Positions 4,509-62,612 of a DNA stretch of 64,000 nucleotides are shown in pieces; the first letter of the stretch is position 1, and the number at the start of each line of letters is the position of its first letter. Below the pieces are notes generated by a model. That model had not been told where the DNA came from, did not search any database, and saw only the letters and a list, made by a program, of their open reading frames with translations. This stretch comes from an uncultured Gemmatimonadales bacterium (GTDB taxonomy: Bacteria; Gemmatimonadota; Gemmatimonadetes; Gemmatimonadales; Gemmatimonadaceae). The stretch lies in contig OY969695.1 in assembly GCA_963701965.1 (NCBI GenBank), forward strand, positions 2,176,001-2,240,000. The letters run 5' to 3'. Position numbers and translations under genes: made by a program.

Positions 4509-7079
4509 ATGAAGATCCTCCGGCGGATCCGCTCCATCGTGTCCCGGCGCGCCGCCGAGCGCGATCTCGACGACGAGATCGCGCTGCATCTGACTCTCGA
4601 GGCCGAGCAGCTCGAGCGGCAGGGCCTCGACGCCCGCGCCGCGGCCGCGACCGCGCGCCGGCGCTTCGGCCGGATCGAGGCGATCAAAGACGCCCTCCGC
4701 GCCGTGCGGGGCGTCGAGCCCTTCGAGGATCTTCGCCGCGACCTGGCCTTCGCCGCGCGCGCCCTGCGGCGCCGCCCGGGGTTCGCCACGGTCGTCGTCC
4801 TGACCCTGGTCATCGGCCTGGCCAGCGCGACCACGATATTCGGCGTCGTCTATGGCGTCCTGTGGGCGCCCCTGCCGTACGCCGACGCGGACCGCGTGGT
4901 CACCGTCTGGCAGACCGACTTGCCCCATAGCATCGCACGCGGCCCGGTGTCGCTGCCCAATCTCCTCGATTGGCGCGAGCGCTCCCGATCATTCGCCGCG
5001 CTCGCGGCCGCGGAGCCGTTCGGCGTGCGCTACGCGGCACCCGAAGGCCCCGAGCGTTTCCCCGCGTGGCGCGTCACCGACGGATTCTTTGCCGCGCTCC
5101 GCGCGACGCCGCTCCTCGGCCGCACCTTCTCCCCCGAGGAATATCAGCCCGGCAACGACGCCGTCGTCGTCCTCGACTACGATCGGTGGCGTACGCGGTT
5201 CAACGCGGATTCGAGCTTGGTCGGCCAGACGCTCATCCTGAACGACCGGCCCGTGCGCGTCATCGGCGTCATGCCGCCGACGGTCCGATTTCCACCCGGG
5301 CCGGGGATCTGGCTGCCCAAAATCCCCCAGCCCGGTGAGCTGCTGCAGCGGAACGCGAGCTACTACGTCGCCGTTGGCCGCCTCGCGCCTGGCGTATCGC
5401 TGGAACGCGCGCGCCGGGACCTGCAGCGCGTCGCGGGCGATCTGGCGCGCGAGTACCCGGCGGTGGATCGCGACGTCAGCGTGTCCCTCGTGCCGTTGGC
5501 GGACGATCTCGTCGGTCATGTGCGTGGCCGGCTGTTGCTCGTGTTCGCGTCCGTCGGCCTACTATTGCTTCTGACGGGCGCCAATCTCGCCATGCTGCTC
5601 CTCTCCCGCGCCGTGGAACGTGAGGGCGAGTTGCGGATCCGCGCCGCGCTCGGCGCCGGCCGCGGCCGCATCGCGCGGCAAATCATGGCCGAACACCTCC
5701 TGCTCGGCGCCCTCGGGTGGGGACTCTCCCTCATCGTCGCGCATTTCGCGCTCGGGGCCGTGCGCCTGATGGGCGCCGGCTTCCTCCCTCGCGCCGGCGA
5801 GTTGCGCATAGGCTGGCCCACGGCGCTCTTCGCCGCTCTCGTGGTGCTGGTCTTTACCGTCACACCAGCGCGGAGCCCCCAGAAGGGGCGCCGCGTGCAG
5901 CGGCTGCTCGTGGTCAGCGAAGTCGCGCTCGCACTGGTCCTGGTGATCGCGGCCGGACTGTTCGTCCGCAGCGTTCGTGCGCTGCTGGAGGTCGATCCCG
6001 GGTTCAAGCCCGCGAACGTACTGGCCCTCACGCTCCAGACCGAGCACCTGTATCCGTCGGATACTGCCCGCGCGGCCTTCGTGCGGACGCTCGAGGATCG
6101 CCTGTCCACGATTCCGGGCGTTCGCCAGGCCGGCGTGACGTCGACGCTGCCATTCGGCGGCGCCATTGGCACGGAGCGGGCCGAGTTCGAAGTCGTCGGC
6201 CGGCCGGTCGGATCGGCCCGCGAGCGGCCCAGTGTCCACGCGGCCGCTATCTCGCCCGGGTACTTTCCCGCCCTCGGCATCCCAATGCGCGTCGGGCGCC
6301 CGTTCGCGCCGACGGATGACGCGACCCATCCGCCGGTGGCGATCGTGAGCGCCACGTTCGCGCGCGCATACTGGGGCAACGCCGACCCGGTGGGTCAGCG
6401 ACTCAGCGTCTCGTTCGACAGCGACCCCACTGTGCGCGAGATCGTCGGCGTCGTCGGTGACATTCACGAGACCGGACTCGACCAACCCCCGGAGCCGGTG
6501 TTGTACGTCCCCTATGCCCAGGCCCCGATCGGTGCCGTCGTCTTCGCGCTCCCGACCTCGGTCACGCCGCGGACACTCGTGGGTGCCGTCCGGCGCGAGC
6601 TTGGCACGGTGAACGGCGCCATGCCGATCGCCTCGCTGACGACGCTCGACGAGCTCCTGGCGTCATCTACGCGCCCACCCCGCGTGATCCTGGCAGTCCT
6701 CGGCGCGTTCGCCAGCATCGCCTTGGCGCTGGCCGGACTGGGTATCTTCGGCGTCATGAGTCATGTCACGCGGAGCCGCACCAAGGAAGTCAGCATTCGC
6801 CTCGCCCTCGGCGCGTCCTCTCGCGGCATCCTGGGTCTCGTCCTCGGGGAGGCCATCGGACTCGCCGGTATCGGCGCGGTCATCGGCATTCTCGGCGCCG
6901 CGACCCTCGGACAGTCGGCCCGCGCGATGCTGTACGCCGTCTCGCCGATCGACCCCCTCACGCTCGCGGGCGGCGTCGCACTCCTGATCGCCGTCGCCGG
7001 CGTGGCCGCGTACGTGCCGGCCCGGCGCGCGGCGGCCGTCGACGCCGTCCGCGCACTGCGCGACGGCTCGTTAAACTGA
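4509..7079 (+). CDS. ADOP-family duplicated ABC permease with permease-prefix domain
   Basis: ERDLDDEIALHL...ARRRFG prefix; RRPGFATVVVLTL; two MacB/FtsX modules; YVPARRAAAVD. Confidence 0.92.
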   Translation: MKILRRIRSIVSRRAAERDLDDEIALHLTLEAEQLERQGLDARAAAATARRRFGRIEAIKDALRAVRGVEPFEDLRRDLAFAARALRRRPGFATVVVLTLVIGLASATTIFGVVYGVLWAPLPYADADRVVTVWQTDLPHSIARGPVSLPNLLDWRERSRSFAALAAAEPFGVRYAAPEGPERFPAWRVTDGFFAALRATPLLGRTFSPEEYQPGNDAVVVLDYDRWRTRFNADSSLVGQTLILNDRPVRVIGVMPPTVRFPPGPGIWLPKIPQPGELLQRNASYYVAVGRLAPGVSLERARRDLQRVAGDLAREYPAVDRDVSVSLVPLADDLVGHVRGRLLLVFASVGLLLLLTGANLAMLLLSRAVEREGELRIRAALGAGRGRIARQIMAEHLLLGALGWGLSLIVAHFALGAVRLMGAGFLPRAGELRIGWPTALFAALVVLVFTVTPARSPQKGRRVQRLLVVSEVALALVLVIAAGLFVRSVRALLEVDPGFKPANVLALTLQTEHLYPSDTARAAFVRTLEDRLSTIPGVRQAGVTSTLPFGGAIGTERAEFEVVGRPVGSARERPSVHAAAISPGYFPALGIPMRVGRPFAPTDDATHPPVAIVSATFARAYWGNADPVGQRLSVSFDSDPTVREIVGVVGDIHETGLDQPPEPVLYVPYAQAPIGAVVFALPTSVTPRTLVGAVRRELGTVNGAMPIASLTTLDELLASSTRPPRVILAVLGAFASIALALAGLGIFGVMSHVTRSRTKEVSIRLALGASSRGILGLVLGEAIGLAGIGAVIGILGAATLGQSARAMLYAVSPIDPLTLAGGVALLIAVAGVAAYVPARRAAAVDAVRALRDGSLN

Positions 7080-52280: not shown

Positions 52281-53181
52281 GGAATTGCATCAGCTCCGCT
52301 ACTTCGTCGCCACTGCCGAATGTGGCAACGTGAGCCGCGCCGCCGAGCGCTGCTTCGTCGCGCAGCCCTCCCTGAGCCAACAGCTCAAGAAGCTGGAGCA
52401 GGAGTTGGGCACGACGTTGTTCGACCGCCTCGGCCGCGGCGTCGCGCTCACCGACGCGGGCCGGGCGCTCCTCCCCCGCGCGCGACGCATCCTCGCGGAG
52501 ATCCGTGAGACGGAGGCGAATCTCAAGCGCGAAGCGGAAGACGGCCCCGGCACGCTCGTCGTCGGCGCCATTCCGACAATGGCGCCGTACCTGCTTCCAC
52601 CGGCCCTGCGCGCGCTGCGCCGCGCCTATCCCACGTGTCCTATCACCGTGCGCGAGGACTACAGCGAAGCCCTCGTGGGCGCGCTCGAGAACAACGAGAT
52701 CGACTGCGCGATCCTGAGCACGCCGCTCGACAATGTGCTGCTCGACGTCAATGTCATTGGGCAGGAGGAGTTGCTCGTCGCGCTGCCGCGGCGCCACCCC
52801 GCGGGCGAACGAGCCGAGCTCCACATCTCGGACCTGCGGGGCCAGCCCACGGTGGCGCTCGCCGACACGCACTGCTTGAGCCGCCAGATCGACCACTTCT
52901 GCTCGACGCGCCATATCGCGAGCCAGGTCGTCTGCCGCACGACCCAACTCTCGACGATCACGGAGCTCGTCTCACTCGGCCTCGGGCTTTCGCTCGTACC
53001 GGAGATGGCAGCGGCGACCGATCGGTCCGACCGCTGCCGCTACCTTCGGTTGCGCCCCGGCAAGCCGGTCCGGCAGATCGTCGTCGCGTGGCGAAAGGGA
53101 CGGAGCCGGCCGGTCGCTGCTGTCCGCTTGATCGCGGAAGTGACCGCGCGCCTCGCCACTGGACGTCACGCGCGACCGTAG
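52279..53181 (+). CDS. oxyR: OxyR-like LysR regulator
   Basis: LysR HTH; GAIPTMAPYLLP; redox Cys pair HCLSRQIDHFC (C-X8-C); divergent from catalase. Confidence 0.8.
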   Translation: MELHQLRYFVATAECGNVSRAAERCFVAQPSLSQQLKKLEQELGTTLFDRLGRGVALTDAGRALLPRARRILAEIRETEANLKREAEDGPGTLVVGAIPTMAPYLLPPALRALRRAYPTCPITVREDYSEALVGALENNEIDCAILSTPLDNVLLDVNVIGQEELLVALPRRHPAGERAELHISDLRGQPTVALADTHCLSRQIDHFCSTRHIASQVVCRTTQLSTITELVSLGLGLSLVPEMAAATDRSDRCRYLRLRPGKPVRQIVVAWRKGRSRPVAAVRLIAEVTARLATGRHARP

Positions 53182-53324
53182 CCGCGAAGTCATCGACCAA
53201 CGTGGTCCGGTGGGGGCCGATCCCCTCGGCTCCAATGCCTCTACTGCAGAAACTCCGACGAAACTCCGACAGCGTGGGCGGGAAAGACAAAGCCCCGCAG
53301 CGACCAAGCGATGCAGGGCCTTCG

Positions 53325-53354
53325 AGTTGCCCCTCCTGGGCTCGAACCAGGACT
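53325..53354 (-). repeat. 30-bp exact copy of the tRNA-Gln 3' end (att site)
   Basis: AGTTGCCCCTCCTGGGCTCGAACCAGGACT is identical to 60279-60308. Confidence 0.95.
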
Positions 53355-53689
53355 GTGGACGCCGAGTCCGAAGGCGCCACCACCCGGGCGAGCAGGAGCG
53401 CTCGGTCAGGAGCTGCCGCGCAATGTCCCCATAGTGGCAACCCAACAAGCGGTGCACGGCGATCTCGCGTTAGCACGGAGTCCCAGCGCGCAGCAGAGCA
53501 AGTTGCCGGACGTTCACGCACCCGATGAGCAAACGCAACCAACCGCGTCGTGAGCATCGACAATAGGGCCGCGCGTCGCCGACCACACAGTGGCGTAGGG
53601 ACCACGGTGACGCCCCGGCATAAGGCAAACCATCCTGTCGAAGCATGGTGAGCCCTAGCGATCCCATGACCGACGCGATTGGCGCTCGC

Positions 53690-54073
53690 GAGCGAGCGTG
53701 CGTCGTGTCGATTCACTCTTCGGACCAGGCCGCCGGATAGGGCTCCGATTACAGCTCCGGCGGCGGCAACCAGCACCACTGTTATCGCGAGGACGCCGAG
53801 GCTCGGGATCCCATTCGGGGGCCTTCCAGGGCCGATCGCCCAAGACACCGCCCAGCCAATAGTCGCTTCGACAGCGGCGATGATGGCGACTCCCCATGAC
53901 GCCGCAGCGACGTTCACTCGGCGGCCGATCATAAACCCGAAGGCCGCATAGATCAGCCAAGAGTCGACAGTCGCATAACTGTACCGGAATCCGATCGTTC
54001 GAGACGCGACCGAAGCCACTAGGTCAAAGACGACGATGGCCAGCGCGCCCCACGAGACCAGTCTTCCGACCAC
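53690..54073 (-). CDS. Hypothetical 4-TM membrane protein, 3' end uncertain
   Basis: First ~125 aa are hydrophobic and protein-like (EATIGWAVSWAIGPG); the rest of the 371-aa ORF looks like read-through. Confidence 0.55.
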
Positions 54074-54256
54074 GTTCGCACTCGGTTTCTCAAAGAGACG
54101 GCAATCATGCGCGGCGGAGCGGTCGACCGCCAGGCCGGCTCGCGCCTCCGTGTTACTGATCCGGAAGAGTCAGCCCCGCTCCTTGCCGCTTCTTGCCAGA
54201 TCTAACTCACACAGATCCTCACACAGCTTGGCGGGCCAGCGGCAGCTCGCTCCGCG

Positions 54257-54440
54257 CTACTGGGGAGGCAGCGTCGCGAGGAACGCATTCATCTCACGCA
54301 GTACGTCCGCCTCATTCGACCCAACCACCCAATGCGACGCGTTAGCTATTCGAACAACGTGCGCCGTGGGATTGGCGCGCTCGAACGCCGTCGCCTGGGC
54401 CGCAATGGCCGAATCGACGCCGGCGGGCACAACCGCGCTC
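54257..54440 (-). pseudogene. C-terminal remnant of an alpha/beta hydrolase
   Basis: AFERANPTAHVVRIANASHWV..SNEADVLREMNAFL covers the catalytic His region only. Confidence 0.65.
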
Positions 54441-54829
54441 ATTGTGCCTTGTGCCCACGTTGTGCCCAGGGGTTTCCGCCAAGCGATTGTGCGTCGGCCG
54501 TCCTCTCTCACCAGGAGCCGGCAAGCGGCCGATCGCGCGTCAGATTTGCAGCGACGAGGATCGTGCGCCTGTCAAGCGATCCGGTCCGTCTCTAGGCATG
54601 GGCCCACACGCTCCAGGTCGGGTCGGACTTCATAGATCTTCAGACCAACGGCCTCTGCGACCTCAGCTTTGGCGAGCATTTCGAGCACGCCACGCTGGCG
54701 CTGGCGATGGCGGGATAACCACTCGCCGGTCGGCACGGTCGCCAAAAAGACGGTGGGCAGACGTCCGCGCAACGGGCGTTCCGTAGGATTCAGCCATCAA
54801 CGAGCCTCTTCACCGTGTCCGAGACCCCT

Positions 54830-55375
54830 ATGCGCCTCCGCAACCGCCTTGCCGTCATCACATCTCTCTCCACCCTCGCGCCAGCCGTCGTGCTCGCGCA
54901 GAAGGACCTCGCATCCTGCAAAGTCGTCTTCGATGCCACCCTCAAACAGCGGGGTACGCCATACCATATGTATACGATGCTCCCCACAAGCCTGACGGGC
55001 GGCAAACCCAAGCAGGACGAGATGATTAGCACCAAGGACAAGACTTACATCATGATCGAGGGCAAATGGAAAGTCAGCCCGATGACGCCAGAGGACAGCA
55101 GGAAGCAGGAAGAGGAGAACATCAAGAACGCCAAGACGTACAATTGCCATCGCGTGCGCGAGGAGTCGGTGGGCGGCGTAGCGGCCACGGTGTACGCCGT
55201 TCACAGCGAGAGTGAAGACGCCGACTCGGATGGCCAAATTTGGATCGCCAACGGCAGCGGGCTGCCGGTCAAGACCGAGATCGGCCTCGATTCCGGTGGC
55301 AGCGCCGCGTCAAAGGACCACATCTCGACCCGCTACGACTATAGCAACGTTCAGGCACCACCGGTTTCGCAGTAG
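54830..55375 (+). CDS. Secreted hypothetical protein
   Basis: Signal peptide ending VLA-Q; GKW..SPM, EE.VGG..A.VY, WI....GLP.K.E, TRYDY.NV. Confidence 0.82.
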   Translation: MRLRNRLAVITSLSTLAPAVVLAQKDLASCKVVFDATLKQRGTPYHMYTMLPTSLTGGKPKQDEMISTKDKTYIMIEGKWKVSPMTPEDSRKQEEENIKNAKTYNCHRVREESVGGVAATVYAVHSESEDADSDGQIWIANGSGLPVKTEIGLDSGGSAASKDHISTRYDYSNVQAPPVSQ

Positions 55376-55505
55376 GGAACCGCATCATTGGCGTCGAGCG
55401 GAGCTTCCCCCGGCGAGGCGCCGGGGCACCGACTTGGAGGGGATTGCACTCTACTCTGTGGACACGCTTTCTCATCTTCAGCGATTGGGTTGTTCCGTCA
55501 GCCCG

Positions 55506-55697
55506 TCACTGTTCACGGAACTCAAGCGAGCAGAATCGCGCCTTGGGAGGCGTGAGGTTCCAACGCTGGCAATGGGGACAGACAACCCAGAGGCGCCCCT
55601 TCGCCGCATCGAATGCCAGGCGCTGACCCACTGGGAAGCGCTCGACGACCTGGTTCGCGCCGAGCGGCGAGTGGCAGAATAGGCAGGTCGAGTACAT
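55506..55697 (-). pseudogene. N-terminal zinc-ribbon fragment of a probably longer protein
   Basis: MYSTCLFCH...RLAFD..KGRLWVVCPHCQRWNLTP (2 x CxxC), followed by an abrupt stop. Confidence 0.6.
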
Positions 55698-55837
55698 GCC
55701 TTTGGCTATAATCCGAGAGAACGACCGGCTCTGCCAGGGCAGTCGCACGCTATGCAAGCCGAGTTTGCGTTGGCCAATGGCACTTGAGTCTTCAGGCCTG
55801 CAGGGCTGATTGAACGATCGCGCTCACGTGCCCAGCC

Positions 55838-56380
55838 CTACTCTGCCACTGTCGCCGGCCGTCTCGTGTCATCGCGAAATACGCGGCGAATCCAGAGCGA
55901 CTGAAAGACGACAACTGCGACCGCGTAGTAGGCAAAGGCGACCGCTGGATAATGGCCCCACGAACGTGGATCCGGGCTCAGATACAGCATCACCGCGCTC
56001 ATCAACGCAAAACAACTCGCATAGGCCAGGGTCGCCGCGAAGGCCTGTGCTCTCGTCGACTTCCCTACCGCGGTCTCCAGCATCGCCGCATACTGCGCCT
56101 CACCGATGCTGCGAAAGAACCACGCGCTACGGAGATTCGATGCTGTGACCATGAACGATAGGATCAGAACGACAACGCCGAGTGCCGTGTTGTAATACGG
56201 CAAGAGGCACACGGCGATGGTGGCAACGGCGAAACGATACCCTAGACCCCGTGCAATTGGGTTCGCCTCCAGCAGCAGCTTGGGGCTGATGAGCCACGTG
56301 CTGCCGATGTCTCCAACCCGCGACAACAAGACCAATCCGGCGAACACGTGTACGAAGTGACTGCTGACAAAACCCGCCAA
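55838..56380 (-). CDS. Membrane protein (DUF5658-like)
   Basis: AGGAG 9 nt before TTG; D..STW.....EANP motif; about 5 TM helices. Confidence 0.7.
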   Translation of the reverse strand: MAGFVSSHFVHVFAGLVLLSRVGDIGSTWLISPKLLLEANPIARGLGYRFAVATIAVCLLPYYNTALGVVVLILSFMVTASNLRSAWFFRSIGEAQYAAMLETAVGKSTRAQAFAATLAYASCFALMSAVMLYLSPDPRSWGHYPAVAFAYYAVAVVVFQSLWIRRVFRDDTRRPATVAE

Positions 56381-56681
56381 TTCTTGGTTCTCCTGATCAG
56401 AGTCCGACCGAGGCGCAGCTCGTTCCGGGTAACCAGTCCCGATACGGCGCCTAATCGGGCATCGGCGCCCGCCCACGCTGTCGAGATCGTCGCAACAGCC
56501 CGGAGAAACTGCGCCGAAACTACTGCCGACACGCCTCAAACACTTCATCAGGAGTAGGCCTGGCGAGGAAACAAACTGCGACCCCGCTCCAAACTCGACA
56601 ATACCGGTCCAGTTGCGCCTAGCTATATTCATCCAGCGTGCGCAATTCGGCATTTGTTCGGCACCGGATCGGAGGATCTCT

Positions 56682-57443
56682 ATGAGCTCGACCCATACTG
56701 CGATCGAATGGACCGATGCCACGTGGAATCCGATGACGGGCTGCACGAAAATCTCCGCGGGCTGCGACTATTGCTACGCCGCATTGTTGGCACAAACCAA
56801 GACCCGCGACGTGTATCTGCGTCGACGCCCTGTTAAGGAGAGCGCGGCGAACCTAGCGGATCCGTTTGCGCCCCGCTTTTGGGAAGATCGACTACGGCAG
56901 CCGCTAAGCTGGCGCACTCCCAAGCGGATATTCGTCAACAGTATGTCTGACGTATTTCATGCTCACTTTAGCGTCGAAATGATCCGTGCCGTTTTCGACG
57001 TGATGGCTCAAGCCGACTGGCATCAATTTCAGCTATTGACGAAGCGACCAGATCGTGCTGCTCGACTCTCACCCAAATTGCCTTGGCCTAAGAATGTTTG
57101 GATCGGGACTTCGGTTGAGAGCATGAACGTCGCACACCGCGTCGATGCTGTGCGGAGTATCGGTGAAGCGGCCGTCCGATTCATATCCGCAGAGCCCCTG
57201 CTCGGTCCGCTCGACCAGTTGGACCTGAGCAATATTCAATGGGTCATCGGCGGTGGAGAGAGCGGGCCTCACTACCGCCCAGTTGATCCGGCGTGGGCGA
57301 TTGGCCTGCGAAATCTCTGTCGATCGAAGCGCGTAGCCTTCTTCTGGAAGCAATGGGGTGGGCGAACGCCGAAAGCTGGCGGGCGATTACTCGAGGGGAA
57401 GGAGTACAGCGCTTACCCGGCACCTCTACCTACCCGTCGGTAG
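56682..57443 (+). CDS. DUF5131 (phage Gp37/Gp68) three-Cys-motif radical-SAM-like protein
   Basis: GGAGG RBS; IEWTDATWNPMTGCTKISAGCDYCYA (Cx6Cx2C), FVNSMSDVFH, LLTKRP, SAEPLLG, WVIGGGESG, FFWKQWGG. Confidence 0.95.
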   Translation: MSSTHTAIEWTDATWNPMTGCTKISAGCDYCYAALLAQTKTRDVYLRRRPVKESAANLADPFAPRFWEDRLRQPLSWRTPKRIFVNSMSDVFHAHFSVEMIRAVFDVMAQADWHQFQLLTKRPDRAARLSPKLPWPKNVWIGTSVESMNVAHRVDAVRSIGEAAVRFISAEPLLGPLDQLDLSNIQWVIGGGESGPHYRPVDPAWAIGLRNLCRSKRVAFFWKQWGGRTPKAGGRLLEGKEYSAYPAPLPTRR

Positions 57444-58635
57444 CGCCCGGAAACGCAAACTCGAGCGGTCGCTTACTAACCGCGTAACTTGCCAGTTCTT
57501 TCTTCAGATCGTCGCCCATGTGCGAGTAGAAACGGGTCTCTGCCAGAACAAATTCTTTTACGCTGTCTTGCGTGCCAGTCCAACGGACCCGTTTCCCCGC
57601 AAACTTCTTCCGCACCGCTTCGAGTATCGGTTGTAAGTCCGTGGTAATGTGAATCGTCATTGATTCCTTGGCGTCATCAGGCAATGCACTCTTATTGATC
57701 GCTGCTCCTATGACCGCCTTCATTTTCGTGAATGCGCGCGGCGACTTCGACGCATGAATCAAGTAGTACGCATGGCGATTGTCAGCGGTTCGAAGCGCGA
57801 ATGGAAGCACGTAAGTCGCGCCTAAGGTGATTAGAAGCTCAACGTACATTTCCACGGCACGTTCCGGCCTGCGTGAAATCGACGTCCTAATAAGCTCATT
57901 CGTCGCCGATTCATCGCCGTACGCTTCCCGCAAGATTCGCTCAGCCGCGGGTTTCGTGTAACCCAAAGCCCTTGCACTTGCTTCGACCTCCCTTCGTCTC
58001 CGCTCTTGATCCTCCACGTCAAACTCGGGGAACAGAGAAGGCCGATCCTGCAACTTCGCGACTTCGCGGTCGAGATCGGGCACCTCGCTGGCAACAACGC
58101 CAAGAAGTCGCACCGCAGACTCATCGGAGAACATCAAGAGCACCTCGCGGCGCTCACCCTCCAGAATCTTCTTAACCACGTCGCGTTTCAGACCATCAAC
58201 GCCGAACGGATCAAGGAAGAAGAATGCCGGTTCTTCCCCGATTTTCTGCAAGAGTCCGTCGACCTTTTCGGCGAACGTTGAATGCCTCAGATATGCCACC
58301 GGGTGTGGCCCAGACCGATCGATATCGTAGGGCGCCATGGCGGCCTCTAGTCGGCGAAATCGACCTGCGTCCTTTTCGATCGCCACTACTGTAACGCGTT
58401 TGCCGTGTCCCAATCGATCTTGTACTTGGACGGCTATTTTCGCCGCGATGACGGGCGACCCATCGTTCCCCAACTCGTCCTTTCCTGCGCCGGCGAACGC
58501 ATCGATGATCCAGACTCGCGAGAGCTTGGACAACAATATCATGGCCCAAGCCTTCAAGTAGCCATCTAAGATCAGATGCTTGAAGAGCGTGTGGGCTTTG
58601 AATTCTGCGAAATGGTCGTCGTGATTCGACAACAC
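57430..58635 (-). CDS. tcmP: Three-Cys-motif partner protein (SAM-methyltransferase-like)
   Basis: HT..KH.IL..YL.AW, IDAFAGAG...GSP, IEKD, FFLDPFG, YYLIHAS, KMK; adjacent to DUF5131. Confidence 0.9.
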   Translation of the reverse strand: MLSNHDDHFAEFKAHTLFKHLILDGYLKAWAMILLSKLSRVWIIDAFAGAGKDELGNDGSPVIAAKIAVQVQDRLGHGKRVTVVAIEKDAGRFRRLEAAMAPYDIDRSGPHPVAYLRHSTFAEKVDGLLQKIGEEPAFFFLDPFGVDGLKRDVVKKILEGERREVLLMFSDESAVRLLGVVASEVPDLDREVAKLQDRPSLFPEFDVEDQERRRREVEASARALGYTKPAAERILREAYGDESATNELIRTSISRRPERAVEMYVELLITLGATYVLPFALRTADNRHAYYLIHASKSPRAFTKMKAVIGAAINKSALPDDAKESMTIHITTDLQPILEAVRKKFAGKRVRWTGTQDSVKEFVLAETRFYSHMGDDLKKELASYAVSKRPLEFAFPGATDG

Positions 58636-59238
58636 TCCTCCTCTCGGTGGATCGCGTAGTACAGCGCCCAGATTGCGCTGCCGACGTGGTCACCGCAAGA
58701 GCCGAATGGGCTGGCGATTTCGAGTGAACGGGCAACTGTCTACGGTTCGATGATGTCCGTTGTGCGAGCAAGAGGATCGATACCGGTGCGTCGCGCCTTC
58801 GGCGCTTGCACCAGGTATCTGATCCCTGCTCGCCGCCATTCGCACCGGCTGCGCCGGCGCTCAAGGCGGATTGCAATCCTGCATGGTGACTAGCGCGCGT
58901 CTGGCGCAGGGCGACGACTCTTGGCTGCCCGGTCTAGCTCTTCCCCAAAGGTCGCCCAGTTCTGTCCGAATGCCGCAAACCAGCGCGATAGGTAGTCCCT
59001 CGAGATATTGCGCTTCCCCAACTCGGCATCAGACGCGTAGTTGGGATGGATTTGCGTTAGGAAGGCCCCCCGCTCCTGGGTTAGCCCTTTCGCTCCCGGA
59101 TTGCACGGAGCATCTGCCCGAGCACCGCTCGGTCGTCATTGGTGGGGGCACGCCCAAGGGGGACGAGTTCCCGCGCTAAAAGTCCACCCACCATCCGGTG
59201 GGTAACGGCAGATCGGCTTCGCCCGTGCGTCCCAGACG

Positions 59239-59496
59239 TCAGCCTCTGCCCTCAAGCAGTTGCGGCACACGGCCGGCAAGGGTTTCGAGCGCCTTGAAGT
59301 ACCGTCCATGCGTCCGCAACAGACCTTCCCTGTTCGCCGCCTCCAAGAGGACGATCTCGCGTTCGACGCCTTCGCGATTCAACACGATCTCCAGATCAAT
59401 GCGAGCATTTTCCGCCAGCGTCCGTTGGGAGTCGCTGAACGCTCGGATACTGACTAACTCCGCACGACCTCTGTCGTACTCAATCAGAAATAGCAT
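59239..59496 (-). CDS. Putative antitoxin, ATphRel / CapRel C-terminal-domain-like
   Basis: GGAG RBS inside the toxin 3' end; FLIEYDR...A..AR..LE......EIVLLEA....L.RTHGRYF. Confidence 0.72.
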   Translation of the reverse strand: MLFLIEYDRGRAELVSIRAFSDSQRTLAENARIDLEIVLNREGVEREIVLLEAANREGLLRTHGRYFKALETLAGRVPQLLEGRG

Positions 59497-60214
59497 TGTC
59501 ATCTCCAATCGCCGCTGAAAGGGTGCCGATAAGTTTCGCGAGATCTCGGTGCATCTGTGCGCGCGCCTCGGCGACCTTCGCCAACACTTGCGAGGAACCT
59601 TCGGGTTCGGCCGATCCGTTGGGCACTGAGAACGCCCGTTCGATCTCTTCATTTCGGGCGATGATTTCGGACATCGAACGCAACATCGATCGAGGAAGCT
59701 CAGCCCCTCCGCCGTACTTGATGTCCTTATCGTTCCGATCGGACAACTTCTCGGACAGCTCAGCCCATCCGTGTTGAAGCCAAGTGCGGACCTGAATCTC
59801 TACCGGCTTGCCATTCCTCTCTACAACGACGTGAACCGCTCGATAACCATGACTCGGCTCCCGGCGGCGATCGATCACACGCGCGTCGGCAAATACCGAG
59901 TGCAGCTGACCCACCACTCCATCCTGCTCGGACAGGTTCGAGACGATCAGCCGGCAACCAGCCATATCTTGAATTTGACTGAGGCGAATGCTCTCCCGAC
60001 GCAGTTTGTCCACGATCGCAGTAGTCGATTTCGCGGCTCGACCTGTTGGCTGCAGACCCAGGCGATCTCTGATTGTGGAGATGACGAATTCATAGGCTTC
60101 GCCGAAAGATCGACGGTAGTGGTCCAACAGCAGCAGGTCTGCCTCACTCGTATCGCCTCCCTTCAAACGATCACCAAGGCGATCGACCTGCGTCTTCGAC
60201 TCGCGCTTCGCCAT
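59480..60214 (-). CDS. Small alarmone synthetase-like toxin (RelA/SpoT SYNTH domain, PhRel/CapRel-like)
   Basis: SKTQVDRLGDRL, R.AKS...I..KL.R...LSQIQDMAGCRLI, GYRAVH, EIQVRT.LQH.WAE.SE, IKYG; no HD, TGS or ACT domain. Confidence 0.9.
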   Translation of the reverse strand: MAKRESKTQVDRLGDRLKGGDTSEADLLLLDHYRRSFGEAYEFVISTIRDRLGLQPTGRAAKSTTAIVDKLRRESIRLSQIQDMAGCRLIVSNLSEQDGVVGQLHSVFADARVIDRRREPSHGYRAVHVVVERNGKPVEIQVRTWLQHGWAELSEKLSDRNDKDIKYGGGAELPRSMLRSMSEIIARNEEIERAFSVPNGSAEPEGSSQVLAKVAEARAQMHRDLAKLIGTLSAAIGDDNAISD

Positions 60215-60231
60215 TCGGACCCCCGAAAGAG

Positions 60232-60271
60232 CAAAACGGCGCCGAATGAGCTAAGCTCATACAGCGCCGTT
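60232..60271 (-). terminator. Intrinsic terminator after tRNA-Gln
   Basis: Minus-strand hairpin AACGGCGCTGTATGAGC-TTA-GCTCATTCGGCGCCGTT followed by TTGCTCTTT. Confidence 0.65.
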
Positions 60272-60280
60272 ATTTACCAG

Positions 60281-60353
60281 TTGCCCCTCCTGGGCTCGAA
60301 CCAGGACTCTCCTGATCCAGAGTCAGGCGTGTTGCCAGTTACACCAAGGGGCA
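60281..60353 (-). tRNA. tRNA-Gln(CTG), CCA not encoded
   Basis: TGCCCCT/AGGGGCA acceptor stem; TGGTGTAACTGGCAACA D arm; CCTGA-CTCTGGA-TCAGG anticodon arm; GGTTCGAGCC T arm. Confidence 0.97.
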
Positions 60354-60446
60354 GTACGGTCCGGTCCCGGCGCGTCTGGACGCGCGCCAGGACCGAAAAA
60401 GAATGACGAGCCACCGCCCGCCCCCGCAAGCCCGGCGGACTGTGGC

Positions 60447-62612
60447 TTACTGCGTCACCGCCCCGGCCGCCGGGATCGTCATCCCCAAATTCGCCGCCGT
60501 GAACGTGATCGCGTCGGCCGTATTCGCGATCCGCTTATCCGTGGGCAGATACCCGTGGCTCCCCTCGGTCTCCACATGGATCAGGACCGGCTTGGCACAG
60601 CCCTGCGCCACCTGCATGGCCGCCGTGAACTTGTAGCTGTGACTCGGCACCACGCGGTCATCGTGGTCGGCCGTCGTCACCAACGTCGCCGGATAACAGG
60701 TACCCGCGTGCACGTTCTGCACTGGTGAGTACTTGATCAAGTACCGGAACGCCGTCGAGTCCGACGCCGAGCCGTACTCGCCGGCCCACGCGGCACCACC
60801 GGTGAAGTGATCGTAGCGCAGCATGTCCATCACCCCGACCGCCGGCAACGCCACGCCGAACAAGTCCGGACGCTGCTCCTCCACAGCCCCCACCAACAGC
60901 CCACCGTTCGATCCACCCTGAATGGCCAACTTCGCCGGCGACGTCACCTTTTCCTTCTCCAGATATTCCGCCGCCGCAATGAAATCATCGAACACGTTCT
61001 GCTTCTTCTCCAACATTCCGGCGCGATGCCACGCCTCGCCATACTCACCACCACCCCGGAGACTCGCCGTCGCATACACCCCGCCCAGCTCCAGCCACAG
61101 TGGGATATCCGAGGCGTAGGTCGGCGTGAGACTGATGTCGAACCCGCCGTACGCGTACAGGAGCGTCGGGTGCGACCCGTCGAGCACGAGCCCCTTCTTC
61201 GCCGTGATGAACATCGGCACCTTCGTCCCGTCCTTCGACGGATAGAAGACCTCCCGCGTCTCGTACCCGCTCACATCGAACGGCAACTTCGGCGCTTCGA
61301 ACGGGCGCCGCGTGTCCGTCGTGAGATCGTAGCGGAAAATCGTCGGCGGATAGAGCGGCGACGTGAACGCGAACAGGAGCTCGGGCGAATCCAACCGGGC
61401 GCCGATCCCAGCCACCGCCCCCACGCCCGGCAGCGCGATGTGCCCCTGCGCCACACCCCTGAGCGACAGGACATGCAGCTCGCTCTTCACATCCACGAGC
61501 TCCTCCAATACCAGATGCCCACCGGCCAACGCCGCGCTCTCGATGTGATTGTTCGACTCCGGCACGATCGTCTTCCAATGCGCCGAGTCCGGATGCGCAA
61601 GATCGACAGCGATCACCTTCCGCTTGGGCGCGCCATGGTCCGTCAACACGTAGAGCGTCGACCCCACAACGTCGAGCGGGAAATAGTCGGCCTCTGCCTG
61701 TGACACCACCGGCATCATCGGTGCATCCACGCGCGGATGCGCAGGATCGCCCAAGTTCACCACTCCCAGCGTCTTTATCGGATCGGTCCCCGGCGTCGAG
61801 ATCAGAAAGAGATACCGCCCATCCTCGCTGACCTGCGCCTGCACGAACCAGTTGGGCTTGTCGGCCCGCTCGTAGATCATCCGGTCCGCCGACTGCGGCG
61901 TGCCGACCTTATGGTAGTAGACGCGCTGATGCTCCAGGGCCGCGCTCAACTTCTGCGCGGCCGACACATCCGGGAACCGCTCATAGAAGAACCCGCGATT
62001 GTCCGCCGTCCACGACAACCCGGAGAACCGCACGTACTTGACCGTGTCCGCGAAATCCTTCCCCGTCGCCACGGTCCGCACCAACACGTCCCGCCAGTCG
62101 GCGCCCCCCTCGGACAACCCGAACGCGACGTACTTGCCGTCCGGCGACGGCGACCACTCCGCCAACGAGACCGACCCATCCGGCGACAACGTGTTCGGAT
62201 CAATCACCACCGACGGCGCCCCGTCCGCTCCCCGCCGCATATAGAGCACAGACTGCCGCTGCAACCCGCTGTTTTTTTGATAGAACCAGATCTTCCCCAA
62301 ATCACCGCGTACCGGCAAGGACGTGCGCGGAAAATTCCAGAGCTCCGTCAACCGCCGCTTCACGAAGTCGCGACTCGCCAGATGCGAGAAATAATCCGCC
62401 GTCACCGCGTTCTCCGACGCCACCCACGCATGTACCGGCGCCGCGTTCAGATCCTCCATCCATTGATAGGGCTTGGGCACCGGAGTCCCGAACATCGTGT
62501 CGACCACCGGGTCCGCCGTCGCCACCGGATAGTGCAGCCCCTGTGCGCCAGCCGGCGCGACCCCAATGCCTCCCACCACCACCGCCATCAGAAAAACGGT
62601 CGTACAGCGCAT
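60447..62612 (-). CDS. Secreted prolyl oligopeptidase (S9A)
   Basis: Signal peptide; PYQWME, YGGF, RGGGEYGEAWH, GGSNGG, DDRV, SHG. Confidence 0.96.
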   Translation of the reverse strand: MRCTTVFLMAVVVGGIGVAPAGAQGLHYPVATADPVVDTMFGTPVPKPYQWMEDLNAAPVHAWVASENAVTADYFSHLASRDFVKRRLTELWNFPRTSLPVRGDLGKIWFYQKNSGLQRQSVLYMRRGADGAPSVVIDPNTLSPDGSVSLAEWSPSPDGKYVAFGLSEGGADWRDVLVRTVATGKDFADTVKYVRFSGLSWTADNRGFFYERFPDVSAAQKLSAALEHQRVYYHKVGTPQSADRMIYERADKPNWFVQAQVSEDGRYLFLISTPGTDPIKTLGVVNLGDPAHPRVDAPMMPVVSQAEADYFPLDVVGSTLYVLTDHGAPKRKVIAVDLAHPDSAHWKTIVPESNNHIESAALAGGHLVLEELVDVKSELHVLSLRGVAQGHIALPGVGAVAGIGARLDSPELLFAFTSPLYPPTIFRYDLTTDTRRPFEAPKLPFDVSGYETREVFYPSKDGTKVPMFITAKKGLVLDGSHPTLLYAYGGFDISLTPTYASDIPLWLELGGVYATASLRGGGEYGEAWHRAGMLEKKQNVFDDFIAAAEYLEKEKVTSPAKLAIQGGSNGGLLVGAVEEQRPDLFGVALPAVGVMDMLRYDHFTGGAAWAGEYGSASDSTAFRYLIKYSPVQNVHAGTCYPATLVTTADHDDRVVPSHSYKFTAAMQVAQGCAKPVLIHVETEGSHGYLPTDKRIANTADAITFTAANLGMTIPAAGAVTQ

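Follow-up and report, generated by a model that had tools for sequence, protein, structure and literature searches.

A TcmP–DUF5131 gene pair with a LexA-type operator on a tRNA-Gln island of an uncultured Gemmatimonadales bacterium

Catalogued relatives and the pair in the window

Gene pairs in which a TcmP protein is encoded beside a DUF5131 protein are already named in NCBIfam and PADLOC, so that the pair analyzed here, which lies in a window of 64,000 nucleotides from an uncultured Gemmatimonadales bacterium (contig OY969695.1, positions 2,176,001 to 2,240,000; coordinates below count from the first letter of the window unless a genome or locus is named), is not new in kind. In the available part of PMC9477430, DUF5131 is the subgroup Megacluster-5-2 at RadicalSAM.org. 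A functional characterization of the TcmP–DUF5131 pair was not found in the portions of the literature that were accessible, where the names occur in tables and gene lists only; a preliminary description of the locus had likewise called the biochemistry uncharacterized. Among radical S-adenosylmethionine (SAM) enzymes, SplB-like members are described as SOS-linked repair genes in the accessible text of PMC3765255, and “a radical SAM protein” belongs to the core Gram-positive SOS regulon according to an excerpt of PMC7739468. What the present analysis adds is that the DUF5131 gene of the window stands behind the LexA-type operator of its lineage and that the nearest solved fold of its product is a DNA-repair lyase. 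The value of the window copy is a clear, independently derived SOS link for the pair in one more phylum. The pair is widespread, occurring in many bacterial and archaeal phyla, with more than 8000 DUF5131 proteins in the database searched and 180 phage records, and the question shifts from candidate defense genes to whether DNA damage switches on a DNA-acting radical enzyme, and to the target of that enzyme.

The features of the pair and its upstream region are as follows.

56646..56661, + strand: LexA-type operator TTCGG-N6-TTCGG, an exact direct repeat 21 nt before the DUF5131 ATG
56671..56676, + strand: GGAGGA, likely ribosome-binding site of the DUF5131 gene, 5 nt before the ATG, from reading of the sequence
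56682..57443, + strand: DUF5131 gene, 253 aa (open reading frame (ORF); Pfam PF07505)
57430..58635, − strand: TcmP gene, 401 aa (ORF; NCBIfam TIGR04474)
57430..57443: tail-to-tail coding overlap, 14 bp common to the DUF5131 and TcmP genes

Both ORFs could be read as the preliminary description had given them, an intact protein with a CX6CX2C motif and a 401-aa protein with DAFAGAG and DPFG motifs, arranged convergently with the 14-bp overlap of their 3′ ends. The AT-richer character of the DNA was also borne out, with a G+C fraction of 0.556–0.575 over 56500–58499 and of 0.64–0.68 in the flanks. A longer DUF5131 reading frame from a TTG start at 56613 was rejected because the operator and the GGAGGA would then fall inside the coding region; homologues begin at the ATG. 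A scan of 56300–59300 for sigma-70-type promoters gave no match, and the only terminator-like site in that scan lies inside the TcmP gene. A look-up of sequencing runs gave none for 56400–59000.

The 253-aa protein matched PF07505 with an E value of 1.5e-85 and 287.1 bits (curated cut-off 28.9), the alignment running the full length of the profile (residues 6–246 on profile positions 2–243 of 243). The TcmP protein matched TIGR04474 (E 7.1e-45, 154 bits, cut-off 53) and gave no match in Pfam. In PADLOC, the hidden Markov models (HMMs) of both components of the candidates PDC-M30 and PDC-M41 were matched by the adjoining genes, DUF5131 as the B component (PDC-M41B, 5.1e-91; PDC-M30B, 1.1e-86) and TcmP as the A component (PDC-M30A, 9e-23; PDC-M41A, 5.2e-4). 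The window pair is an ordinary member of the catalogued TIGR04474/PF07505 family, from which nothing essential sets it apart. TcmP here stands for “three-Cys-motif partner”; an identification with tetracenomycin O-methyltransferase was rejected as a coincidence of names.

The partnership was surveyed with HMMs built in this analysis and one genome per species, giving 80 loci with TcmP, spread over many phyla of bacteria and archaea. DUF5131 was directly adjacent to TcmP in 63 of them, in the following arrangements.

27 loci: DUF5131 adjacent to and convergent with TcmP
21 loci: DUF5131 adjacent, upstream of TcmP in the same direction
11 loci: DUF5131 adjacent, downstream of TcmP in the same direction
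4 loci: DUF5131 adjacent to and divergent from TcmP
17 loci: no adjacent DUF5131

The ends of the two genes overlap in 20 of the 27 convergent pairs, by 4–64 nt. Another radical-SAM ORF was found among the nearest neighbors in 11 of the 17 loci that have no adjacent DUF5131, which brings the total to 74 of 80. Nine of the 11 are counted to the spore photoproduct lyase (SPL) family (L021, L027, L032, L040, L048, L049, L055 and L070, with two each in L021 and L040). A Radical_SAM ORF is present in L019 and in L056, where it also matches DUF5131 weakly, and the neighbor in L062 is a weak DUF5131 match. In the six remaining loci the gene is truncated (L013) or the locus is cut by a contig end (L014, L025, L029, L042, L079). 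Fusions also occur, with DUF5131 followed by TcmP in protein P0077 and TcmP followed by an SPL-family domain in P0058, P0060 and P0061. TcmP is thus paired near-obligatorily with a radical-SAM enzyme, and the co-occurrence of the two families that had been put forward as established is borne out by these loci. Just upstream of DUF5131–TcmP, two deltaproteobacterial loci encode a third protein of ~331 aa, a canonical Radical_SAM member (L044:8128–9120 and L066:8075–9070), and in L033 TcmP is flanked by both a DUF5131 and an SPL-family gene.

A LexA-type operator and the predicted folds of the two proteins

The direct repeat TTCGG-N6-TTCGG is common to the regions upstream of DUF5131 in Gemmatimonadota loci, and in the window it is followed in the same 11-nt phase by a third half-site, ATCGG with one mismatch (56668–56672), which overlaps the ribosome-binding site. 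Sixteen exact copies of the box are present in this genome, with ~11 expected by chance from our own estimate on base composition. Two of them stand in tandem just upstream of lexA (G000:C1:4877053–4877095; an ORF with LexA_DNA_bind and Peptidase_S24 domains), another ends 3 nt before a dnaE2-type gene (2278764) that itself follows imuA-like and imuB-like genes, and recA (4598862) has a box with one mismatch. The survey was extended to the lexA genes of this genome and 19 relatives (loci L112–L132; the unpublished genome G012 was left out), and the primary lexA gene was preceded by two exact boxes within ~105 nt in 20 of the 20 genomes. Its position at lexA in all 20 genomes, at dnaE2 and at recA thus makes TTCGG-N6-TTCGG a likely LexA operator of the lineage; to judge from these sequences it is very likely that of this Gemmatimonadota order, and we infer LexA binding from its placement. 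Besides the primary gene, this genome (G000:C1:864087–864278) and several relatives (loci L133–L141) have a lexA-like paralogue that encodes a LexA_DNA_bind domain; none of the eight such paralogues examined has the box upstream, so that they are not autoregulated in the manner of the primary lexA. No paper naming both LexA and a Gemmatimonad was among the top matches listed in the literature search.

Within 200 nt upstream of DUF5131, the exact box was found in 10 of the 63 TcmP-linked loci, all ten from among the 13 Gemmatimonadota loci that have DUF5131 (the three without an exact box being L010, L012 and L046). A second form, GAAC-N4-GTTC, which we take to be the core of the Gram-positive LexA box, was present upstream of DUF5131 in 8 of the 63 loci (L015, L043, L050, L059, L071, L072, L077, L080), all of them from Actinomycetota or Chloroflexota, so that a LexA-type box of either form precedes DUF5131 in 18 of 63 loci. 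The background in the same 1.34 Mb was 0.0033 per 230 nt for TTCGG-N6-TTCGG and 0.0041 for GAAC-N4-GTTC, and each form was found upstream of TcmP once in 79 cases. TCGAAC half-sites are visible in the accessible part of the tabulated LexA-box data of PMC9380542. The boxes stand before DUF5131 and not before TcmP; in convergent pairs it is therefore the radical-SAM gene alone that carries the operator, which fits the separate promoters that the tail-to-tail layout had been taken to imply. A guess from gene numbers that Rv2734/Rv2735c are the pair of M. tuberculosis was dropped, the two genes being unmentioned in the accessible text of a LexA ChIP-seq paper (PMC3381160).

The cysteine motif of the DUF5131 protein reads C21-X6-C28-X2-C31. 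None of the 61 DUF5131 proteins examined from TcmP loci lacks any of the three cysteines, which are also invariant in an alignment of 66 sequences (A2), as is C213. The predicted structure had a predicted local distance difference test (pLDDT) value of 93.6 and a predicted template modeling (pTM) score of 0.90. When this model was compared with 48,161 PDB representatives in VIA-align, the closest fold was that of spore photoproduct lyase (4fhc_A; Z 13.9, root-mean-square deviation 2.9 Å over 198 residues, 13% identity), followed by viperin (Z 11.1), lysine 2,3-aminomutase (Z 10.7) and lipoyl synthase (Z 10.6). The best 20 matches were radical-SAM enzymes throughout, with Z from 13.9 to 9.0. 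By the core fold of its model, the DUF5131 protein belongs to the radical-SAM superfamily. In the Pfam scan of the same protein neither PF04055 (Radical_SAM) nor PF20903 (SPL family) was matched. The canonical CX3CX2C motif is absent, and TIGR04471 (radical SAM mobile pair protein A) gave a weak match of 2.1e-18, far under its cut-off. Sequence searches of the PDB with DUF5131, TcmP and the TcmP profile gave no meaningful match, the best being an L24 chain (E 0.45) and RecJ (E 0.28).

In TcmP, DAFAGAG occupies residues 45–51 and DPFG residues 142–145, and the positions invariant in an alignment of 65 sequences are D45, A48, G49, G51, G59, S60, E87, L96, D142, P143, G145 and R176. The predicted structure (pLDDT 95.6, pTM 0.91) has strands at 40–45, 80–86, 114–117, 137–141 and 163–169 alternating with helices, a hairpin at 275–296, a 37-residue helix at 203–239 and a C-terminal helix/hairpin domain at 334–394. 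From this model and the motifs DxFAGxG, GSP, E87 and DPFG, the N-terminal part is predicted to be of the Rossmann type and SAM-methyltransferase-like, and the C-terminal domain, which is variable, is predicted to resemble a winged helix. The Pfam domain GMT-wHTH is found at the C-terminus of some TcmP homologues. An ESM Atlas query with TcmP returned its own family only.

The tRNA-Gln island and other genomic settings

The pair lies on an island at a tRNA gene, as had been proposed from the window, and the features of the island are the following.

53325..53354: left 30-nt direct repeat (att-like), a duplicate of the tRNA-Gln 3′ end and exact repeat of 60279–60308
53355..60278: island of 6.9 kb between the repeats (repeats, empty sites and dip in G+C)
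60280..60353, − strand: tRNA-Gln(CTG), integration target (ARAGORN; Rfam tRNA, 61.9 bits)
59480..60214, − strand: small RelA/SpoT-homologue gene, toxSAS-like (RelA_SpoT 9.1e-16; PDC-S33 9.7e-30; phrog_4773 3.6e-22)
59239..59502, − strand: small ORF, candidate antitoxin, 87 aa from an internal ATG (phrog_22117 5.6e-8; no Pfam match)
58756..58871: structured repeat of ~115 nt upstream of TcmP, with several copies in the genus

G002 (contig C205) and G003 (contig C4), relatives from the same genus, have an empty site in which the left flank is joined straight to the tRNA, and the 6.9 kb between the repeats are therefore an insertion. Further copies of the tRNA-Gln end were found 7–10 kb away in G001, G003 and G005, so that the tRNA-Gln gene is a hotspot with changing cargo. 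In contigs C72 of G001, C4 of G003 and C239 of G005, the extra copies of the 3′ end are accompanied by ~44 nt of island-side sequence and lie 7–20 kb apart, which suggests tandem islands with differing cargo at one hotspot.

The toxSAS pair that had been placed beside the two genes would be represented by the RelA_SpoT domain at 59480–60214 and by the small ORF that overlaps the 3′ end of the RelA/SpoT-type gene as a candidate antitoxin. The remaining cargo, a secreted-looking ORF of 186 aa, a zinc-ribbon-like ORF of 83 aa and a membrane-protein ORF, has no significant family match. A Pfam scan of the island ORFs 52958–54073, 54257–54511, 54815–55375, 55506–55757, 55838–56746 and 59239–59652 revealed no nuclease or integrase domain, the scan covering these ORFs and not every small one; this agrees with the earlier observation that no nuclease is encoded nearby, by which the locus was held not to be a classical restriction-modification (R-M) system. 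Rfam found tRNA only over 52500–61000.

Several smaller elements of the island are recorded here in their own right. The segment 55537–55700 of the zinc-ribbon-like ORF 55506–55757 (− strand, two CxxC pairs) is matched many times by DNA of 72–79% identity across the relatives, with several copies per genome; judged by its sequence, this ORF is part of a multi-copy family of small genes that has no significant Pfam match. The ORF at 54257–54511 (− strand, 84 aa) resembles by eye a C-terminal piece of an alpha/beta-hydrolase, with no family match, and may be a gene remnant. The repeat at 58756–58871 has an 87% identical copy at genome position 4312695–4312812 and more copies in G003 and G005. 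It folds into long hairpins, with minimum free energies of −67.5 and −73 kcal/mol for the two strands, and at least one compensatory change separates the two copies; it gave no match in Rfam, and could be a small structured RNA or an element of the REP/MITE type.

In the gene-neighborhood survey that the preliminary description had proposed, Pfam matches of 289 neighboring ORFs, up to two on each side, placed R-M, defense-type, toxin-antitoxin or mobility domains near the pair in 41 of the 80 loci, a raw count from our own sorting of Pfam families that has no baseline. R-M or DNA-methylase domains account for 17 of these 41 loci. In six of the 17 (L037, L042, L050, L057, L058 and L062) a large gene of the Eco57I/MmeI methyltransferase(-nuclease) type is directly beside the pair, together with a Schlafen/AlbA_2 gene in L050, and such loci may be larger composite systems. 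Neighbors of the repair type were also seen, namely a Peptidase_S24 and IMS pair (umuDC-like) at L045 and RecT at L057.

Occurrence on mobile DNA and in phages, which had been put forward as known for the two families, is evident from the island itself and from searches of phage records, where tblastn against 50,697 records found DUF5131 in 180 and TcmP in 8. The two genes of Gordonia phage ThankyouJordi converge, share 4 bp and lie between the integrase and the immunity repressor, TcmP being directly downstream of the repressor and in the orientation of the repressor (lysogenic) operon. Within the phylum, 32 of 151 sampled genomes have DUF5131 (29 over the cut-off) and 19 have TcmP, 17 of the 19 together with DUF5131; the pair is therefore accessory. 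In database searches, the best 120 of the more than 8000 DUF5131 matches were at 69–75% identity apart from the 100% self match, and the 78 matches of TcmP gave best values of 99% (P0001, 400 aa) and 61%, the rest being at 46% or below.

Readings of the pair and comparison with known systems

We tentatively read the locus as a damage-induced pair, a radical-SAM enzyme with TcmP, that processes damaged or altered DNA bases, a reading that we regard as plausible rather than probable. Because the DUF5131 gene stands directly behind a LexA-type operator, DNA damage is its likely inducer. This operator, together with the SPL-like fold and the loci in which SPL-family enzymes take the place of DUF5131, points to DNA as the substrate and damage as the cue. 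In such a scheme, LexA would repress DUF5131 until its RecA-mediated cleavage. The DUF5131 protein would bind a [4Fe-4S] cluster through C21, C28 and C31 and cleave SAM to a 5′-deoxyadenosyl radical, whose target would be a hydrogen of a DNA base or lesion, in analogy to spore photoproduct lyase, with the invariant C213 as a possible hydrogen donor. TcmP would be expressed from its own promoter. From DxFAGxG and E87 it is predicted to bind SAM, and from its winged-helix-like C-terminal domain to bind DNA; it may flip out the target base and present it through the DPFG loop, and would in this way make the choice of target for DUF5131. The outcome would probably be lesion processing; in chemical terms it could be lesion reversal or a mark on the DNA.

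Several observations weigh against such a damage-induced role. An exact box precedes DUF5131 in only 18 of the 63 loci, archaeal loci cannot use LexA, and LexA control is also common for mobile-element genes unrelated to repair. No GAAC-N4-GTTC precedes the DUF5131 gene of ThankyouJordi; the sole copy in the 12.7-kb stretch (4631–4642) is within the integrase gene. The cysteine spacing is CX6CX2C and not the canonical CX3CX2C, variant spacings being known within the radical-SAM superfamily, and hhalign gave no profile link between DUF5131 (A2) and the SPL-like partners of TcmP (A4; probability 1.7%). Comparisons of TcmP by hhalign were not significant with E. coli RlmJ (35.7%) or with an RlmJ alignment (14.5%), the latter being of low diversity, with sequences 82–91% identical to the first one, since the matches listed by the homologue search were close relatives only; RsmJ (9.8%) was not significant either. 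About half of the loci have R-M, defense or mobility neighbors, and the pair is patchy, on islands and in prophage immunity regions. In addition, a comparison of 13 matched loci, 50 others having been dropped by a length filter, gave a median identity of 36.6% for TcmP and of 58.9% for DUF5131. DUF5131 was the more conserved protein in every one of the 78 locus pairs, and there was no rank correlation. On these sequences, the fast divergence of TcmP looks more like that of a specificity or arms-race subunit than that of a housekeeping repair factor.

The preliminary description had inferred that the two proteins install a non-canonical base modification or act in phage defense, both of which are putative here. 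Much of this evidence would suit an R-M-like defense against phages or mobile elements, in which TcmP would mark the host’s own DNA at specific sites by way of its variable C-terminal domain, DUF5131 would use radical chemistry to damage or inactivate incoming DNA that lacks the mark, and convergent, separately controlled genes would limit the dangerous partner to times of need. The match of both proteins to PADLOC candidates argues for it, as do the 41 loci with R-M, defense-type, toxin-antitoxin or mobility neighbors and the 17 R-M/DNA-methylase loci among them, the carriage of the pair as island cargo beside a toxSAS-like gene, the position in ThankyouJordi between integrase and immunity repressor, the patchy distribution, the fast evolution of TcmP beside a conserved DUF5131 and the maintenance of a convergent, overlapping layout (27 of 63 pairs convergent, 20 of the 27 overlapping). 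However, the neighborhood counts have no baseline, LexA repression of the “effector” would be unusual for R-M systems, no nuclease was recognized in the scanned island ORFs, and the nearest solved fold is a repair lyase and not a DNA-damaging enzyme; moreover, PDC-M30 is merely listed, and no experimental test of PDC-M30 or PDC-M41 was found, in the accessible parts of the literature. Defense is in our view less likely than not, and is nevertheless kept a close rival by the mobile, patchy, defense-island and prophage contexts and by the fast evolution of TcmP. The operator and the SPL-like fold make a role in DNA damage at least as likely as one in defense.

The same mobile contexts could be explained by counter-defense, TcmP and DUF5131 installing an unusual base on the element’s own DNA, upon SOS-triggered induction or transfer, so that it resists restriction in the next host. 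The phage records given above and an SOS control that suits the timing of prophage or island induction are in keeping with this, and a SAM-binding transferase-like protein with a radical-SAM enzyme would make a plausible two-step modification route. On the other hand, no integrase, replication or transfer genes were recognized in the scanned ORFs of the island, so that the element would own hardly any DNA in need of protection. Many loci lie on chromosomes among ordinary genes of metabolism, and TcmP of ThankyouJordi has the orientation of the lysogenic operon. We regard counter-defense as unlikely. Modification of rRNA or tRNA rather than DNA, with TcmP acting as an RlmJ-like enzyme, is still less probable and would surprise us. 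It draws on the ordered motifs K-H, D-x-(F/H)-A-G-x-G-R, G-S-P, an acidic residue and D-P-(F/P)-(G/Y) that TcmP shares with E. coli RlmJ. Against it stand the non-significant profile comparisons given above and the SOS control, SPL fold, winged-helix-like C-terminus and R-M, phage and island contexts, which point to DNA; this genome also has no match to the RlmJ family (PF04378).

A more far-reaching possibility, which we regard as less likely than not, is that the pair stands for a new class of SOS-induced, DNA-directed radical-SAM machinery, in which a relative of SPL that is unable to locate its target by itself is aimed at a particular base or lesion by a fast-evolving, methyltransferase-derived, base-flipping specificity subunit. 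If true, this would be a module traded among bacteria, archaea and phages in the manner of an R-M system, with novel chemistry, either the undoing of a lesion for which no repair enzyme is known or a DNA mark made by a radical.

Compared with known systems, the DUF5131 protein is most like SPL (SplB; 4fhc; PF20903), a radical-SAM DNA-repair enzyme. The likeness is one of fold (Z 13.9) and of genomic place, SPL-family enzymes taking the position of DUF5131 beside TcmP in 9 of the 17 loci that have no adjacent DUF5131 and TcmP–SPL fusions being known. DUF5131 differs in being ~90 residues shorter, in having CX6CX2C instead of CX3CX2C and in sharing only 13% identity in the structural alignment, and SPL is not known to need a TcmP-like partner. 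TcmP in turn shares with RlmJ (the 23S rRNA m6A2030 methyltransferase, PF04378) a collinear set of motifs, a K-H helix, DxxAGxGR, GSP, an acidic residue and DP-x-x. In contrast to this likeness, there is no HMM match, RlmJ has DPPY where TcmP has DPFG, and an insert of ~45 residues between motif I and GSP in RlmJ is missing from TcmP, which has instead a long helical insert and, at its C-terminus, an additional domain.

The operator resembles the direct-repeat LexA operators of alphaproteobacteria, GTTC-N7-GTTC, in its 11-nt phase and TTC-N8-TTC spacing, and differs in its TTCGG half-site and in that LexA binding is putative here. Type II R-M systems with convergent R and M genes are alike in having a methyltransferase-like gene tail to tail with the gene of a second enzyme under separate control, in mobile carriage, in patchy distribution and in a fast-varying methyltransferase-like partner. 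The present pair differs from them in that it comprises no nuclease, that a LexA-type operator precedes its second gene, which encodes a radical-SAM protein, and that methyl transfer by TcmP is only putative. The closest counterpart is the TcmP/three-Cys-motif pair itself (“phage Gp37/Gp68”; PDC-M30, PDC-M41), with which the window copy agrees in HMM matches, adjacency, invariant motifs and the convergent layout, which is the commonest arrangement (27 of 63 pairs). Specific to the window copy are its place on a tRNA-Gln island, the 14-bp overlap and the Gemmatimonadota-type LexA box before DUF5131.

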